A DNA stretch of 64,000 nucleotides, taken from NCBI GenBank assembly GCA_054600435.1, contig BAAIJX010000005.1, positions 310,001 to 374,000 of the forward strand. Direction: 5' to 3'. The stretch comes from Neophaeotheca triangularis (lineage: Eukaryota). A program made the position numbers and the translations under genes. Below, one piece after another: positions 44,333 to 50,978 of this stretch. A model generated the notes under the pieces. The model had not been told where the DNA came from. It was given only the letters and a program-made list of their open reading frames with translations, and ran no database searches. Each line of letters begins with the position of its first letter. Position 1 is the first letter of the stretch.

Positions 44333-45339
44333 ATGGGTTTGGCTTGCACTGTGTGTCTAGGTAGCGACTGGCAGAGCTGGACGAGGCGTAAAAAGTTGCC
44401 AGCGGAAGCTTGTGAAGAGGAAAGATCCTTCAGGGCGATTAACGGATGACGGCGACGGCGAGTGGTGGACTGGAACAGTTTCAAAGGCTTCGAAGGTTCC
44501 GGTAGCACTTGCAGTGTAACATACAGTTAGTTAGTTGTTGGTATGGCTATAGGAATGCTAATCTGAGCACCTGCGGAGAGACGATTTGAACATTTTCTCC
44601 AACTTCACTGCCCTGCCCAAGCCTGCCCTGCCCTTCAAAAGTCCTTCTTTCCTAATGCGGAACTAGCGCGTGGATGTACCCGAGACGGCGGCCACCACAC
44701 CCATTCTGCCTCTTATCATAAGGTAAGCAAGCTATACATGTAAGTTACTAGTAAGTAACGTAACGTGCACCTTGAGTACGATGTAAGCGATACCGATGTC
44801 TTCCGATACCTACACAAACCTCACTCACTCTCTACCTCCTACAGGCCGGGAGAGTGATAAGGTACCTTACCTACCTACCATTAATATTTAGCCAGCTACC
44901 GGTAGCCAGCACCAGCCCCGAGCAAGCCGAAGAGAACAGCTGCAGCTTCTCTCAGCTTGCGGCGTTTTGTTCTCAGCTTCCCTTCTCCTTTTCCAAGCAT
45001 GTGAAAATGCAATGCTTCGGATTGTCTTCGTGCGTGGTGACTTGACATGCAACCTGCTCGACGACCCACCAAGCCTTCTCCCCTCTTCTCAACGTCCTCT
45101 CACCTCGACCTCGACCTCCTCCTTCTTTTTGCTCTCTTCTTGATCCTCACAAAACTTCAAACTGCCATCGTCGCTTTGTCCCGCTTTGTTCCGTCGAAAC
45201 GCCGCAGAATACCCCGAGCATTGACCAGGAACGAACAACTCCTTTGTCACAAGACGCCCGTAGCATATATCCGTCACCTCCGCCGCAGTCAGCACACCCT
45301 CCTCAACCACCAGCAGGCCACCGTCTGGCAAACAGCAAC

Positions 45340-46494
45340 ATGAGCCACCCGGCCTCACACGAAGACAATGGCGGCGCATCCCTCAAACCGCAACCCCGAC
45401 CCCGTCGACCCTTCGAGCTGGGCTCCTATAGCACGCCCTCGTCCGCACCCTCCACACCACCTGCCGAGCCCTCATCAGGCGGACTCCAAGCTCCCGACAA
45501 CTATGTAGACGGCGCCACCACCCCGGCCAAAACCAAAAGCATTTTAAACCTCACCAGCTCCACCCTTCTCGGCATCTACAGCCCCACCGGCTACGCAGCC
45601 GACAGAGACGAACCTAGCACACCCTGGGGCACTGGCGCCGAAACCCCCGTTGACTCCCGTACCGGCTCCATGGACGTCTCGCGTACAGACATCCCTAACA
45701 CGGTCTTACAAAAGGGGCCCAACGGCACGCACAGAAGGAGACGGAGTACAATCACCCCGCAGAGCTTCGCGCACCACAAACCCCGACGCGGTTTCAAAGG
45801 CTACTTCCTTCCCCTCGCCGGCCGCACGATCTCGCTCTTCGCAATCGGCATGCTGTACGGCCTGCTCGTCAGCCACTTGCACGACAAGCGCGACATGGCG
45901 CCCGTCAAAGTCGAGGGCATCGACCGCTCGAGCTGGCTGTACATGGCTTTCTGGGGCGTGGCGGGCGTGGCGCTCGGGCAGGCACTGCCGTGGATCGACT
46001 GCTTCTGGGCGGCGGAGGAAGACGGTGAGTGGGAAGCTGTCGAGGACCGCGAGAAGAGCAGCAGCAATGTAAGGGGTACAGGAGGTTGGAACGACGTGGT
46101 CAGGAGCGTGGGAGCTTTCGTCGGCATCGCTTTCGCTATCCGCAAGCTGCCCTGGCAATCTACGCTGCAATTATCCTTGACGCTGGCGCTCGCCAACCCA
46201 GCCGTATGGTACCTCATTGACAGATCACCCCCGGGGTTCTTGCTCTCAGCCACCGTAGCTCTCAGCGGAACGGCGCTGCTGCTGGGCATCAACCCGGCTT
46301 TAGTGCCCTCGCCCGGCCCAGCAGAAGCGATGCGCGGTCACATCGGGGGCACGCAATTGGGAAGCGAGGAGCTAGTCTTCGGGCTTTTCAGCCACGAGTC
46401 CGTGGGCGTCGCGACGTGGATTGCGAGCGTGCTGTTCGTGAGCTCGGTGTGCTTTGGCAATATCGGGAGGAGATTGGCGCCGCAGAAGAGCTGA
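45340..46494 (+). CDS. INSIG/Nsg family sterol-regulatory membrane protein
   Basis: Motifs SILNLTSSTLLGIY, VRSVGAFVGIAFAIRKLPWQSTLQ, LANPAVWYLIDRS and WIASVLFVSSVCFGNIGRRL. First ATG is at 45340. Confidence 0.88.
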   Translation: MSHPASHEDNGGASLKPQPRPRRPFELGSYSTPSSAPSTPPAEPSSGGLQAPDNYVDGATTPAKTKSILNLTSSTLLGIYSPTGYAADRDEPSTPWGTGAETPVDSRTGSMDVSRTDIPNTVLQKGPNGTHRRRRSTITPQSFAHHKPRRGFKGYFLPLAGRTISLFAIGMLYGLLVSHLHDKRDMAPVKVEGIDRSSWLYMAFWGVAGVALGQALPWIDCFWAAEEDGEWEAVEDREKSSSNVRGTGGWNDVVRSVGAFVGIAFAIRKLPWQSTLQLSLTLALANPAVWYLIDRSPPGFLLSATVALSGTALLLGINPALVPSPGPAEAMRGHIGGTQLGSEELVFGLFSHESVGVATWIASVLFVSSVCFGNIGRRLAPQKS

Positions 46495-47208
46495 TGGCTG
46501 GAGTATATAGATTGGCTATGGTATTCATATCGATACTACGGCCGCTGACATGGCGGATGCAATTTGGTCCAGACCTCTCTCTCTGCCCGGAGAAGCTGCT
46601 TGCCACGAAACTCTCACCCTTGCACCCCATGATGAAGCGCCCCGAGCCGGCCGGTTGATACATGTTGGGAATCACTGTGCAATACCCCGTCGATACATGT
46701 TGTCCACGCCATCTCCCGGGCTTCTGCCACGCTGTCGCCCGTTGTAGTATTATACAACATGACCGACAAAAAGTGCCTACCCCTCTCCCACCAAGGCTTA
46801 CGGCTACAGTATCGACCGCGAGTTGAAAAGCCACCGCCGAGAGAACGAAGTACTCGAGGCAACCAGGTTGAATACAAGCGTCCCCAGCAGATACCTGTCT
46901 CTCTTGATGTGAAACCTACCTGTGTCCACAGGGGAGCCCTTGGACTTGTAATGGTTGGCTTAGCTCAGTCGCTAAGAGGTGAGAAGGCACAAGCATGGCC
47001 GAGAGGCTGGAATCCAGGCAACAGACCGATCGTTGCCTTTTCCGGTTTACCTCATTCTTCAGTCTCGAAGACAATTGTCCCTGTAGTGCAATACAAGAAC
47101 GAGAAAATTTGAGCCGGAAACCAAAAGATAATCAGCCCAAAGTGAGATATGATGCTCAATCGACAGCTCAAGCACACACGCTGAAGAGTCGGAAGAAACA
47201 CAAAAAAG

Positions 47209-47215
47209 AAAAAAA
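47209..47215 (-). terminator. Pol III poly(T) terminator of the tRNA-Val gene
   Basis: T7 run on the minus strand about 15 nt after the discriminator base, followed by a T6 run. Confidence 0.75.
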
Positions 47216-47229
47216 GAGAAGTATCATCG

Positions 47230-47402
47230 TGATTTCCGGCGGGTTCGAACCGCCGACCTTCTGCGCCCACATTGCTGCTTTGGAATCGCGGCTTGATATG
47301 TTAGGCAGACGTGATAACCAACTACTGTGGCGATTTGTTAGTTAACTGTGAGACTTAAGTTTGTATGAGGGTGGTTGGGAGAGTACGAACCACCAGGAAA
47401 CC
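47230..47402 (-). tRNA. tRNA-Val(AAC) interrupted by two introns (33-nt canonical anticodon-loop intron; 66-nt spliceosomal-type D-stem intron)
   Basis: Joining 47402-47391, 47324-47299 and 47265-47230 gives a 74-nt cloverleaf: GGTTTCC TG GTGT AGTTGGTTA TCAC G TCTGC CTAACAC GCAGA AGGTC GGCGG TTCGAAC CCGCC GGAAATC A. Anticodon AAC is at 47302-47300. Confidence 0.9.
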
Positions 47403-47727
47403 CGTGTCGCAACTTGAGATGTGTTGCATGAAGACCCAGGGGGTGCCAGATTGTATATGTTGATCAAAAAACAATTGTGCCGAGATCTGGCCGTGGGTTG
47501 TGGAGACGTTCAAAACGTGCCTTTCGTGGGATGGGTTTGAACAGGGGTGGGGATGTCAGGCTCTGACAATAATGTGTTGGTTCTTCTTTCCTTGTCGCTG
47601 CAGTGGGTGGTTCCTTTTTTTCCCGTTGCCGTTGTCCCTCGCATTCCAGTCGCTGTGCTAGCACATCCCTTTCAAGCTTTGCGAGATGGAGCGATGCATT
47701 TTTCCACGTAGCAATAGCAGTGAGAAT

Positions 47728-47960
47728 GTTTGGAGATGTGAGGTAAGGAATGAAACAGAAGTGAGAGCGATGGTGAAAAAAGAGTTAACGTTGGTATTGA
47801 GGTATGGGTAGAGTAAAAGTGAGAGGAAGAATAGCGTGAGGGCTAAAGTTGAGGTTGGGGTACATGTAGAGCCAAAGTGGTAGCAACAATGAGACAGGGG
47901 TTGTTCAAGTTGGCATTGAGGTACGGGTAGAGTTGATTGTTGGAAGAGAAGAGGCAGAGA
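47728..47960. repeat. Degenerate ~60-bp tandem repeat (3-4 units)
   Basis: gttggtattgaggtatgggtagagt (47790) and gttggcattgaggtacgggtagagt (47909), with more diverged units at 47848 and 47728. Confidence 0.55.
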
Positions 47961-48128
47961 AAAAGCACTCTACTCCGCTCCCACGGTAAGCTCATTCACC
48001 CAGTCCTCTTTCAGGATATCTACCCCAGGAACCAGTGAGAAGGCGTAGAGTAGTATCGTGGTTCATCTTGGCTCTGTTGATACCATGAGATTAAAGCACG
48101 TCGTCGTCGAAGCATGGTATTCACGACC

Positions 48129-49160
48129 TCAGCTAAGCATCACAATGGCTATGTGCAAGAAGCCGTCGCTGTAACTCGCAGCTCTACCCAGTTCGGCCAA
48201 ATTGGCAGCCATAGGTACCCCAGCTCCATGCAACACGGGTGTAGCAAGAAGAGGGTTCCTTCGACTGGGAAAAAGAGGTCGAAGGGTGTCGTTCAACGCC
48301 GTGCCCAGCGTTTGGGGTTGTTTCGAGGGAAGATTCAGCGGAACCAGGGATTGCACGACTCGAATGTGACCAGCCGTCGGGGCGCTTTCGGCCGCTGTAT
48401 CGGAGGCCGCTTGGTTGGAGGCACTCGGGAGGTAGATTTTCAAGGGCACGTGGCGAAGCTGGACTCCTGGGGGGTTGAGCAATTTGTTGTTGATGGAGTT
48501 GAATAGCTTCATGTCGTCTTTGCTTGTATTAGTAACGAATAGGTGTTCACATAGGGGCTGCTAGATGAGGAGAATAGTCTCACGTTCAACAATTGACCGC
48601 CACAAGCTATCGGAATCCTCTTTGCTCATTGACATGATAGTCTTGGCATTTCCGTTTCGGATGAAGTCGGCCTCCTTGACGCTGTTGATGTACGAATCGA
48701 GCATGGTTCTTCCTTCAGGATCAAGTTGCACAAGGACATCGTTGGGGAATTCGGTGTAGTGAACCGTAAGCCTAAAGGGCAGCTGCTCAATTTCTTTGCC
48801 ATCCTTCTCGATAGGTTTCGCTCGTCCTAGTGCCTCAACTTCCTCAGCGCTCACGAGCTCAGCTCCAGACAGCAGGTCGTAGAGCAGACCGACTGGATAG
48901 TGCCACTTTAGAGGTATGTCTTCGAACGAAAGCCAGGCATCGTACGGTGAAGCTTCCGGATCGATTAGGGAGGCCTTGAAGAAGGCATGCAATTTCGGTA
49001 AAAGGAAGGAAAGATAAGACAATCGCGGATACTGGATCAGGTATGCTTCTGATTCATCATATGTCCGGCAGTCTGAAGGTGATAAGCGTATTTCCAAAGG
49101 CAGCGAACCATCCCATATCTTGGCCTGTAGCGTCGAAATGGCCGCGGGTGAGGCTGACAT
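48129..49160 (-). CDS. ATG5: Autophagy protein Atg5
   Basis: Motifs IWDGSLPLEI, PRLSYL, PLKWHYPVGLLYDL and YINSVKEADFIRNG. Intron 48583-48518, then LRHVPLKIYLP, QTLGTAL and DGFLHI. Confidence 0.95.
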
Positions 49161-49424
49161 TACCGCGGGTAATGGGTATTGTCTTCTAAGTACATCGATG
49201 CCGGGGTCATAGAGAGAGGAGGAGGCATCATGTTTCCAAGGTTGGAGTGAGGTTACAGTGAGACCGATTGCGTGAAGGTCGTCGCCAGCAGCGTGGAAAC
49301 AAATGGCCTGAGGCAGGAACGGCGGTTAGCGCGTAAAGTGGCAGCTTGCCGACGTCGCGTCGCCGGAGAAGCTGTACGCGTTTCTCACAAACATCGCAAA
49401 AAGAAAGCCATACGAGCAGATACG

Positions 49425-50978
49425 ATGGCAATCACCGACAATGGAGGAGATGGTGTTCTACTGTCGAATCCAAGGTGGGTGCGAATTCACAACCAAATCT
49501 AGTATGCGCCGCTAACAACGCTCAGCAACGACGGTCATGAGCTACTCGAGCGAACACCTTCAGCCTACAACCCGTTAACGACATTTCTGCTACCGAGAGG
49601 CGAAAGCAGGCATTATCAGCAACAGTATGCCGACATGTACTTTGCGCGGCTCGCGCAGCTGAAGCCTGCCGCAGAGAGCATAGCGAGCGAAGCCTTCCAG
49701 GATCTAGACATTGGCGGAGACTCCCCACATCATGTCGACAGAGTGCTGGATGTGCGGCAAGGGGAGCTATGCTGGGTGATTGGTACAATTTACATGGAGA
49801 TGCCGTTGAAACCGAACATTCTGGACGACATAGGAAAAGAGCATTGGATCGCAGCTCCACCGCAGAGAGAGAAATTCACCAGTGAGGGCGATGTGGATCA
49901 AATCATGCTGGAGGACGAGTCCGGTCGTCTGAGGCTTACTGGGAATGTTCTGAAGTCGTTTCTGCTAGTCACGGGTTGTATCGTTGCCGTGATTGGCACG
50001 GAGAATGCAGATGGTGATTTCGAAGTCTTGGATATAAGAGTCCCGGATCTCCCGCGCCAACCGCAGAGGTGGGAGCGCGACGACGGGGACGCAGCCACCA
50101 AAGGAAAAAGCACTACGAAGATGCACGGCGAAGGTGGCAAGGTAGCCTTGATGTCAGGACTCAGCATCAGCGGTGATGCTGGCGACACTTTGACCCTCGA
50201 CCTCTTGATGGAGTATCTTCTGGGCGAATCCACCTCACCTTCGGACCAAGCTACAGCTGCTACTATATCTCGCCTGATCATCGCGGGCAACGCTCTCGAG
50301 CACGCCTCACCTATCCCTTCCAGAGACGACATGGCAGCTGCAGCGAAGAAGTCAAAGAAGACCTACGGTTACGACAGCGCAGCCTACAACGCAGCACCCA
50401 CCGAACGTCTCGATACCTGGCTGGCAAATCTCCTACCCTCGATGCCAATTACTCTGATCCCTGGCGCACACGACCCAACCTCTGTCCAACTCCCACAACA
50501 ACCCATCCACCCAGCCATGTTTCCTCACTGCCGTTCATACATCGAGCCTCCTGACAGCAAAACGCAAAGCTGGTTCGACAATGCCACCAATCCATTCGAG
50601 GCCGACATCGACGGCTACCGTCTTCTCGGCACCGGCGGCCAGACCGTCGACGACGTCTTCAAATACGTCCAGGGCGATGAGCGACTCGAGATGATGGAGG
50701 CCATGATGCGCTGGCGTCTTACGGCCCCAACGGCCCCGGACACCCTATGGTGCTATCCTTTCCAGGATGGCGATGCATTTGTGATGAAGGAGAGCCCGCA
50801 TGTGTATTTCGTGGGCAACCAGCCGAAATTCGAGACAAGACTTATCGGGGGTCCCGTAGGCCAGACGATTCGTTTGATCGCTGTCCCGAAATTCAGAGAG
50901 ACTGGCGAGATCGTGCTGCTGGATATGGAGACTTTAGAGCCTGAGATTGTCAAGTTTCAGCTTTTCGAAGGCGAGTGA
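49425..50978 (+). CDS. POL31: DNA polymerase delta small (B) subunit
   Basis: Intron 49475-49525. Motifs QQYADMYFARL, MLEDESGRLRL, LPQQPIHPAMF, APTAPDTLWCYP and PHVYFVGNQPKF. Confidence 0.95.

Follow-up and report, generated by a model that had tools for sequence, protein, structure and literature searches.

Organization of the locus

Inspection of the window (i.e., the whole 64-kb stretch of DNA that was analysed) indicated a predicted tRNA-Val(AAC) gene on the minus strand at 47402-47230, with two introns that appear to be of unrelated kinds (Table 1). The gene sits in a 1.6-kb spacer between convergent genes for an INSIG-family protein and for ATG5. As read from these coordinates, the unspliced form of the tRNA is 173 nt in length, the form without the 66-nt insert 107 nt, the form without the 33-nt intron 140 nt and the mature form 74 nt. 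Both the coordinates and these four sizes had been given in a preliminary description of this DNA and were found to be exact when the sequence was read again. No CCA is encoded at the tRNA 3' end. The genes that surround the locus, namely those for the INSIG-family protein, ATG5 and DNA polymerase delta subunit 2, are ordinary housekeeping genes. The window is of ascomycete origin, as judged from the DNA polymerase delta subunit (encoded at 49527-50975), which falls in protein clusters found most often in Ascomycota.

Table 1. Predicted features of the tRNA locus and its surroundings, in window coordinates
Feature	Position	Strand	Remarks
DNA polymerase delta subunit 2 gene	49475-50978	plus	neighbouring gene
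ATG5 gene	48129-49325	minus	frame end 48129, 727 nt upstream of the tRNA, same strand
ATG5 intron	near 48585-48520	minus	starts GTGAGA; TACTAAT branch motif
T6 run	47471-47466	minus	upstream; would halt Pol III read-in from upstream
Exon 1, 12 nt	47402-47391	minus	tRNA positions 1-12: acceptor 5' half, U8, G9, first three D-stem bases
66-nt insert (I1), spliceosomal-type intron	47390-47325	minus	between tRNA positions 12 and 13, in the D-stem
5' splice site of insert	47390-47385	minus	GTTCGT
Branch motif of insert	47342-47337	minus	(A)CTAAC
3' end of insert	47329-47325	minus	CACAG; branch-to-3' distance 13 nt
Exon 2, 26 nt	47324-47299	minus	position 13 to A37: rest of D-arm, anticodon stem 5' half, anticodon AAC
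33-nt intron (I2), canonical tRNA type	47298-47266	minus	position 37/38
Exon 3, 36 nt	47265-47230	minus	C38 to discriminator A73: anticodon stem 3' half, variable loop, T-arm, acceptor 3' half
B-box-like element GGTTCGAACC	47251-47242	minus	T-arm, pattern match
Pol III terminator-like site	47202-47215	minus	T7 (47215-47209) then T6 (47207-47202); starts 15 nt past tRNA 3' end
INSIG-family gene	45046-46494	plus	frame end 46494

Identification of the tRNA

A regular 74-nt cloverleaf, called as tRNA-Val(AAC), was returned by ARAGORN at default settings when the three exons were joined. The raw window gave no tRNA by the same program, with the intron option either on or off, and the clean 74-nt cloverleaf appeared only after the 66-nt insert had been taken out. 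Nothing was found when the whole window was compared with Rfam at the gathering threshold; the sole Rfam match at E values up to 10 over 47000-47700 (SCARNA21, 13.3 bits) was dismissed as chance. The anatomy put forward in the preliminary description, i.e., a spliceosomal-type intron in the D-stem and a canonical intron at 37/38 of a single tRNA-Val(AAC), was borne out by the ARAGORN call on the joined exons and by the splice signals of the insert.

The 107-nt form, from which the insert alone had been removed, was read by ARAGORN as a 74-nt tRNA with a 33-nt intron at 34/35 and as Pro(TGG), a register that is enabled by the intron end TGGG (47266-47304, minus strand). Removal of 47298-47266 leaves the anticodon loop CTAACAC. 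With two registers possible, the sequence by itself is ambiguous, and both the placement of the intron at 37/38 and the valine identity of the tRNA are assigned here from the 37/38 rule and from the body of the molecule, which we take to resemble that of a valine tRNA. The choice between Pro(TGG) and Val(AAC) registers constitutes an annotation trap for intron-aware tRNA finders.

In the minimum-energy fold of the 107-nt form, acceptor, D, anticodon and T arms were all present and the anticodon arm was extended by the intron. The extension consisted of pairs C32-G(-1), U33-G(-2), C36-G(-3) and A37-U(-4) and of three intron-intron pairs. Thus, the pairing of the 3' end of the 33-nt intron with the anticodon arm that had been claimed previously is present in the minimum-energy fold, and by shuffling it lies within chance: at least four loop-intron pairs were formed by 12.9% of the shuffled versions of this intron (n=1000), and the energy z-score was -1.26. 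An anticodon-intron pair C32-G(-3) is also possible from the sequence, the minimum-energy fold having picked another register. A clean bulge-helix-bulge motif was not formed in the 33-nt intron, and no other copies of this intron were found within the 64-kb window, beyond chance words of 8-15 nt.

Splice signals of the 66-nt insert

The 66-nt insert was compared with coding introns predicted in the same window, which were defined as GTNNGT...CTRAY...AG segments that join two long open frames, the best candidate being taken at each of 11 sites. The 11 introns predicted in this way by joining of open reading frames were 44-96 nt in length, began with GTNNGT and contained CTRAY 10-19 nt before YAG. 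In its 5' hexamer, its branch distance and its length the insert fits these introns, and GTTCGT itself is the 5' hexamer in two of the 11.

The likelihood that such signals arise by chance was estimated from all 127,868 66-mers of the window (both strands), of which 515 begin with GT and end with AG and two carry GTNNGT, CTRAY at 8-20 nt and AG together. The insert can be placed in either of two registers (12/13 or 11/12) that give an identical joined sequence, with GT-AG in one only, and the resulting chance of ~1.6e-5 must therefore be doubled. Even so, chance falls far short of explaining the spliceosomal signals found here. From these signals we infer that the insert is an ordinary U2-type spliceosomal intron and that it would be excised as such.

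The alternative of an archaeal- or red-alga-type non-canonical tRNA intron, cut out by the tRNA endonuclease through a bulge-helix-bulge, has in its favour that introns of this kind exist in some red algae according to the available sections of PMC10485636. When the junctions of the insert were read by hand, three of the four central pairs of such a motif could be drawn and both the outer and the inner helix were absent; nor did the motif appear in the minimum-energy fold. The fungal four-subunit enzyme, moreover, is described in the same sections as one that removes only 37/38 introns, and the GT, CTAAC and AG signals of the insert would be left unexplained. A non-canonical tRNA intron is for these reasons considered very improbable.

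Within the 64-kb window, no second copy of the 66-nt insert was found beyond chance words of 8-15 nt. The junction of exon 1 with the insert (47385-47398, minus strand) reads GGTGGTTCGTAC and repeats the GGTTCG core of the B box in the T-arm; in the predicted fold of the 173-nt form this junction pairs with the 3' half of the T-arm. The repeat could be due to chance, or it could be relevant to TFIIIC binding or to keeping the precursor unfolded.

Predicted transcription unit

The transcription unit looks compatible with Pol III as judged from its sequence features. No run of four or more T residues was found on the minus strand between 47465 and 47216, and runs of T stand on either side of this interval (Table 1). 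That the insert contains no T4 run is uninformative, nine of the 11 predicted coding introns being likewise without one. GGTTCGAACC was assigned as a B-box-like element by its match to the B-box consensus. Over the window, a B-box-type pattern gave four matches against 2.3 expected, two of these being the tRNA-Val gene itself, which was matched on both strands because the motif is palindromic.

The A box, which by its consensus would occupy tRNA positions 8-19, is interrupted by the insert after position 12 and before position 13 and is not contiguous. Normal TFIIIC-directed choice of a start site is uncertain as a result, and this predicted split of the A box is the main anatomical argument against normal expression of the gene.

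A different view of transcription would place the locus within a Pol II transcript, arising for example by read-through from ATG5, in which the insert would be spliced and from which the tRNA would be released at most as a by-product of RNase P and RNase Z. In the available sections of PMC12530127, Pol II transcripts are the normal setting of spliceosomal introns, and the tRNA does lie downstream of the end of the ATG5 frame, with both on the minus strand. The unit is nevertheless bounded to a size expected for Pol III by the upstream T6 run and by the T7 and T6 runs that follow the tRNA. A distance of 727 nt, as found between ATG5 and the tRNA, is also long for a fungal 3' UTR, and an origin of the tRNA from Pol II read-through is considered quite improbable.

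Comparison with related sequence data

Four DNA sequencing runs (designated X2-X5) were aligned to the window at 80% likeness, and two of these (X2 and X5) bear the gene. The comparative sample is thus small and consists of two related data sets that are 3-5% diverged. Both introns were retained in each. The flanks of X2, which carries the same organism label as the window, are diverged by ~4%, with 36 differences over 47299-48199. Among the changes listed, those within the gene comprise seven substitutions (at 47342, 47343, 47345, 47356, 47363, 47365 and 47374) and a 2-nt deletion at 47350. All eight fall at positions 17-49 of the insert, i.e., in its middle, and none of the listed changes falls in the first 16 nt of the insert, in the part that extends from CTAAC to AG, in the exons or in the 33-nt intron. 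Three bases just 5' of CTAAC are altered while CTAAC itself is intact. An 85-nt contig of X2 over 47244-47328 showed no differences. For a further X2 contig (47021-47246), positions are listed for six of nine differences, and the other three could lie in exon 3.

The X5 data, which carry another organism label, provided a 151-nt contig (47238-47388) that includes both introns, at a depth of only 2.5 and with five differences. Three of the five are listed, all in the middle of the insert; the other two could touch exon 3 or the region of the 5' splice site. At ~4% divergence, the probability that none of the 74 exon bases would differ is ~0.06, which is only weakly significant. The clustering of the eight listed X2 changes within 33 of 173 positions is the stronger signal. 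Among the changes listed, the splice signals therefore appear conserved while the interior of the insert drifts, a pattern that derives from one diverged lineage and from the partial X5 contig.

Additional X2 contigs were noted over the 3' part of the gene. One of these aligned across the 33-nt intron, from which it lacked 9 nt in five small deletions, and, by bin arithmetic, stopped aligning at the boundary between exon 2 and the insert. The depth of the 85-nt contig was 157.8 as compared with 82.8 and 102.9 for its neighbours, although contig depth in X2 does not equal copy number, and extra depth was also seen over exon 3 (47230-47265). The shorter-intron contig and the extra depth over exon 3 are likely to represent paralogous valine tRNA genes with a related 37/38 intron.

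Elsewhere in the spacer, two X2 contigs of about half depth each, which differ in their counts of differences, covered 46500-46638 and 46719-47013, and a single full-depth contig covered 47299-48199. The X2 sample seems to hold two haplotypes or strains. The remaining runs lay off the gene: X3, from an air metagenome, covered only 47771-47946, and X4, from a marine metagenome, covered only 46866-47055 together with a 36-nt piece. The short contigs of both matched parts of the spacer at 90-97% identity and are probably from low-coverage relatives.

A scan of metagenomes for a valine tRNA with the split D-arm pattern gave no matches and is uninformative, the collection holding almost no relatives. 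A control pattern in the same metagenomes (exon 2, intron and exon 3) gave one match, L001, a tRNA-Val(AAC) that is unrelated and unsplit and has an intron at 37/38. In L001 (1371-1445, minus strand), the D-arm and anticodon arm are as in the window gene and the acceptor stem, T-arm and 37/38 intron differ. A scan of a collection of prokaryote genomes gave no matches, as expected.

These comparisons bear on the main rival explanation, which is that of a disabled or dying copy in a multi-copy family. According to this explanation, a spliceosomal-type intron or an intron-like mobile insert hit one member of the tRNA-Val family, split its A box and silenced it, and tRNA-Val is supplied by uninterrupted paralogues. 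The split A box would fit such a history, and so would the X2 contigs on exon 3 and the 33-nt intron, which suggest paralogues free of the insert, since one of them has an intron 9 nt shorter and ends at the boundary between exon 2 and the insert. The sequencing runs listed for the locus, furthermore, are all of DNA and none of RNA. An intron that is inserted precisely restores the tRNA sequence on paper whether the gene is in use or not. The distribution of changes in X2 is, however, unexpected in a dead gene, with no change listed in the exons, the 33-nt intron or the three splice signals as against eight in the middle of the insert. The cloverleaf is also intact and the terminator-like T runs are kept. 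Silencing of the gene is on this evidence considered unlikely, if less so than the other alternatives weighed here.

Proposed order of the two splicing steps

In the preliminary description, the SEN endonuclease was said to recognize the folded tRNA, and removal of the insert was argued on that basis to come before that of the 33-nt intron. The statement on recognition agrees with the available text of PMC10485636, in which the four-subunit eukaryotic endonuclease recognizes overall tRNA structure and in which TSEN54, TSEN34 and TSEN2 touch the D-arm. In the predicted fold of the 173-nt precursor, the acceptor stem and the anticodon-intron helix persisted and the D-stem and T-arm were lost, being replaced by pairing of exon 1 and the 5' end of the insert with the T-arm.

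A second argument for order comes from the location of the two enzymes. The endonuclease is described in the same source as residing on the outer mitochondrial membrane in Saccharomyces and in Schizosaccharomyces, and its presence there in both yeasts makes it reasonable to assume this location for further ascomycetes. Given a nuclear spliceosome and a SEN enzyme that would be at the mitochondrial surface, removal of the insert would come first by compartment alone. This argument is stronger than the earlier one from structure, and the spliceosome may reasonably be expected to act before SEN.

Removal of the two introns in no fixed order, with SEN able to excise the 33-nt intron from a precursor that retains the 66-nt insert, would draw on the predicted fold of the 173-nt form, in which the acceptor stem is formed and the anticodon-intron helix is that of the 107-nt form. 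The loss of the D-stem and T-arm from that fold speaks against it, and a misfolded tRNA precursor is unlikely to be exported. It is the D-arm, moreover, with which the three TSEN subunits make contact, and the ascomycete enzyme is cytoplasmic according to the part of PMC10485636 available. Processing in no fixed order is considered rather improbable.

The reading preferred here, held with somewhat more confidence than doubt, is that of a live tRNA-Val(AAC) gene whose precursor would need the spliceosome and then SEN. The sequence data establish the anatomy of the gene, its splice signals, the match of these to the coding introns predicted in the window and their retention in two related DNA data sets, whereas transcription of the gene, probably by Pol III, excision of the insert by the spliceosome and the order of the steps are inferred. 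In the proposed mechanism, the 66-nt insert would be removed in the nucleus by the spliceosome, the RNA probably being a product of Pol III like the fission yeast U6 snRNA, which is spliced in this way, and the D-arm and the L-shaped body of the tRNA would form only after this removal. The resulting 107-nt pre-tRNA would be the substrate for excision of the 37/38 intron by SEN/TSEN, in an ascomycete most likely at the mitochondrial surface following export, and tRNA ligase would join the halves. The expected path would thus run from ~173 nt to 107 nt to 74 nt. The more specific proposition is that of a nuclear tRNA unable to mature without the spliceosome, its D-arm being rebuilt first in the nucleus and its second intron being removed afterwards by the tRNA endonuclease, probably in the cytoplasm, so that two unrelated systems act in a fixed order; for this proposition we consider the chances to be about even.

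It had also been suggested that such a dependence might couple the supply of tRNA-Val to the activity of the spliceosome. This coupling is speculation, and it is weakened because the extra X2 contigs look like paralogous valine tRNA genes. Should there be paralogues that lack the insert, the supply would at most be coupled in part.

Comparison with known systems

The nearest described case is the intron of U6 snRNA in S. pombe. According to the available sections of PMC5855946, this Pol III-made RNA contains an mRNA-type intron that the spliceosome excises, unrelated introns (up to four per gene) occur in U6 genes across many fungi, and introns are found in U1, U2 and U5 genes as well; most of the fungal U6 introns are described there as being without experimental validation. 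Introns have also been described in fungal U3 snoRNA (PMC5832005, in part). Like the fungal U6 genes as these sections present them, the tRNA-Val gene is a short gene for a structured non-coding RNA with an internal Pol III-type promoter element, and its putative intron has canonical 5', branch and 3' sites, beyond which its sequence is not conserved, and breaks up a region critical to the function of the RNA. Unlike U6, the host of this intron is a tRNA and not a component of the spliceosome, and the origin proposed for the U6 introns, by reverse splicing in the active site, is not obviously applicable. The tRNA-Val precursor differs further from the snRNA cases in that it carries a second intron for a different enzyme.

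Canonical eukaryotic tRNA introns are removed by TSEN/SEN and tRNA ligase (PMC10485636, in part), and the 33-nt intron resembles these in its position, 37/38, and in its capacity to pair with bases of the anticodon loop. Unlike canonical tRNA introns, the 66-nt insert lies at 12/13, forms no bulge-helix-bulge and has spliceosomal signals. More than one intron per tRNA gene, with one outside the anticodon loop, is a feature shared with archaea, some red algae and nucleomorphs (PMC10485636 and PMC3978253, in part), and such genes escape standard tRNA finders. The introns of these organisms are cut by the tRNA endonuclease at a bulge-helix-bulge, whereas the extra intron of the tRNA-Val gene has GT...CTAAC...AG and no such motif. 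Introner-like elements of fungi (PMC5647799, in part) could have given rise to a short spliceosomal intron of recent origin in an ascomycete. Such elements occur as many near-identical copies, however, and the 66-nt sequence is single within the 64-kb window.

Full-text search of the literature returned no paper on spliceosomal introns in nuclear tRNA genes, in a collection outside which lie most subscription journals and ~1.7 million PMC articles.

Significance

According to the available sections of PMC12530127, spliceosomal introns belong to mRNAs and to further products of Pol II and are unrelated to the introns of tRNAs; in those of PMC10485636, tRNA introns are tied to position 37/38. 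The tRNA-Val gene described here would be a case in which a small RNA gene of Pol III type has a spliceosomal intron, the RNA being a tRNA that also bears a tRNA-type intron. If confirmed, a tRNA that requires the spliceosome would break the separation of intron types by RNA class, and tRNAs would join the small group of Pol III-type RNAs that contain mRNA-type introns, at present essentially U6. The precursor would then also provide a natural substrate for study of spliceosome recruitment to an uncapped and very short transcript, and its two-intron layout would allow the order of nuclear and cytoplasmic steps to be read from the sizes of intermediates. Confirmation would mean, in addition, that tRNA gene counts in fungi are underestimated, because ARAGORN and Rfam both missed the tRNA-Val gene.
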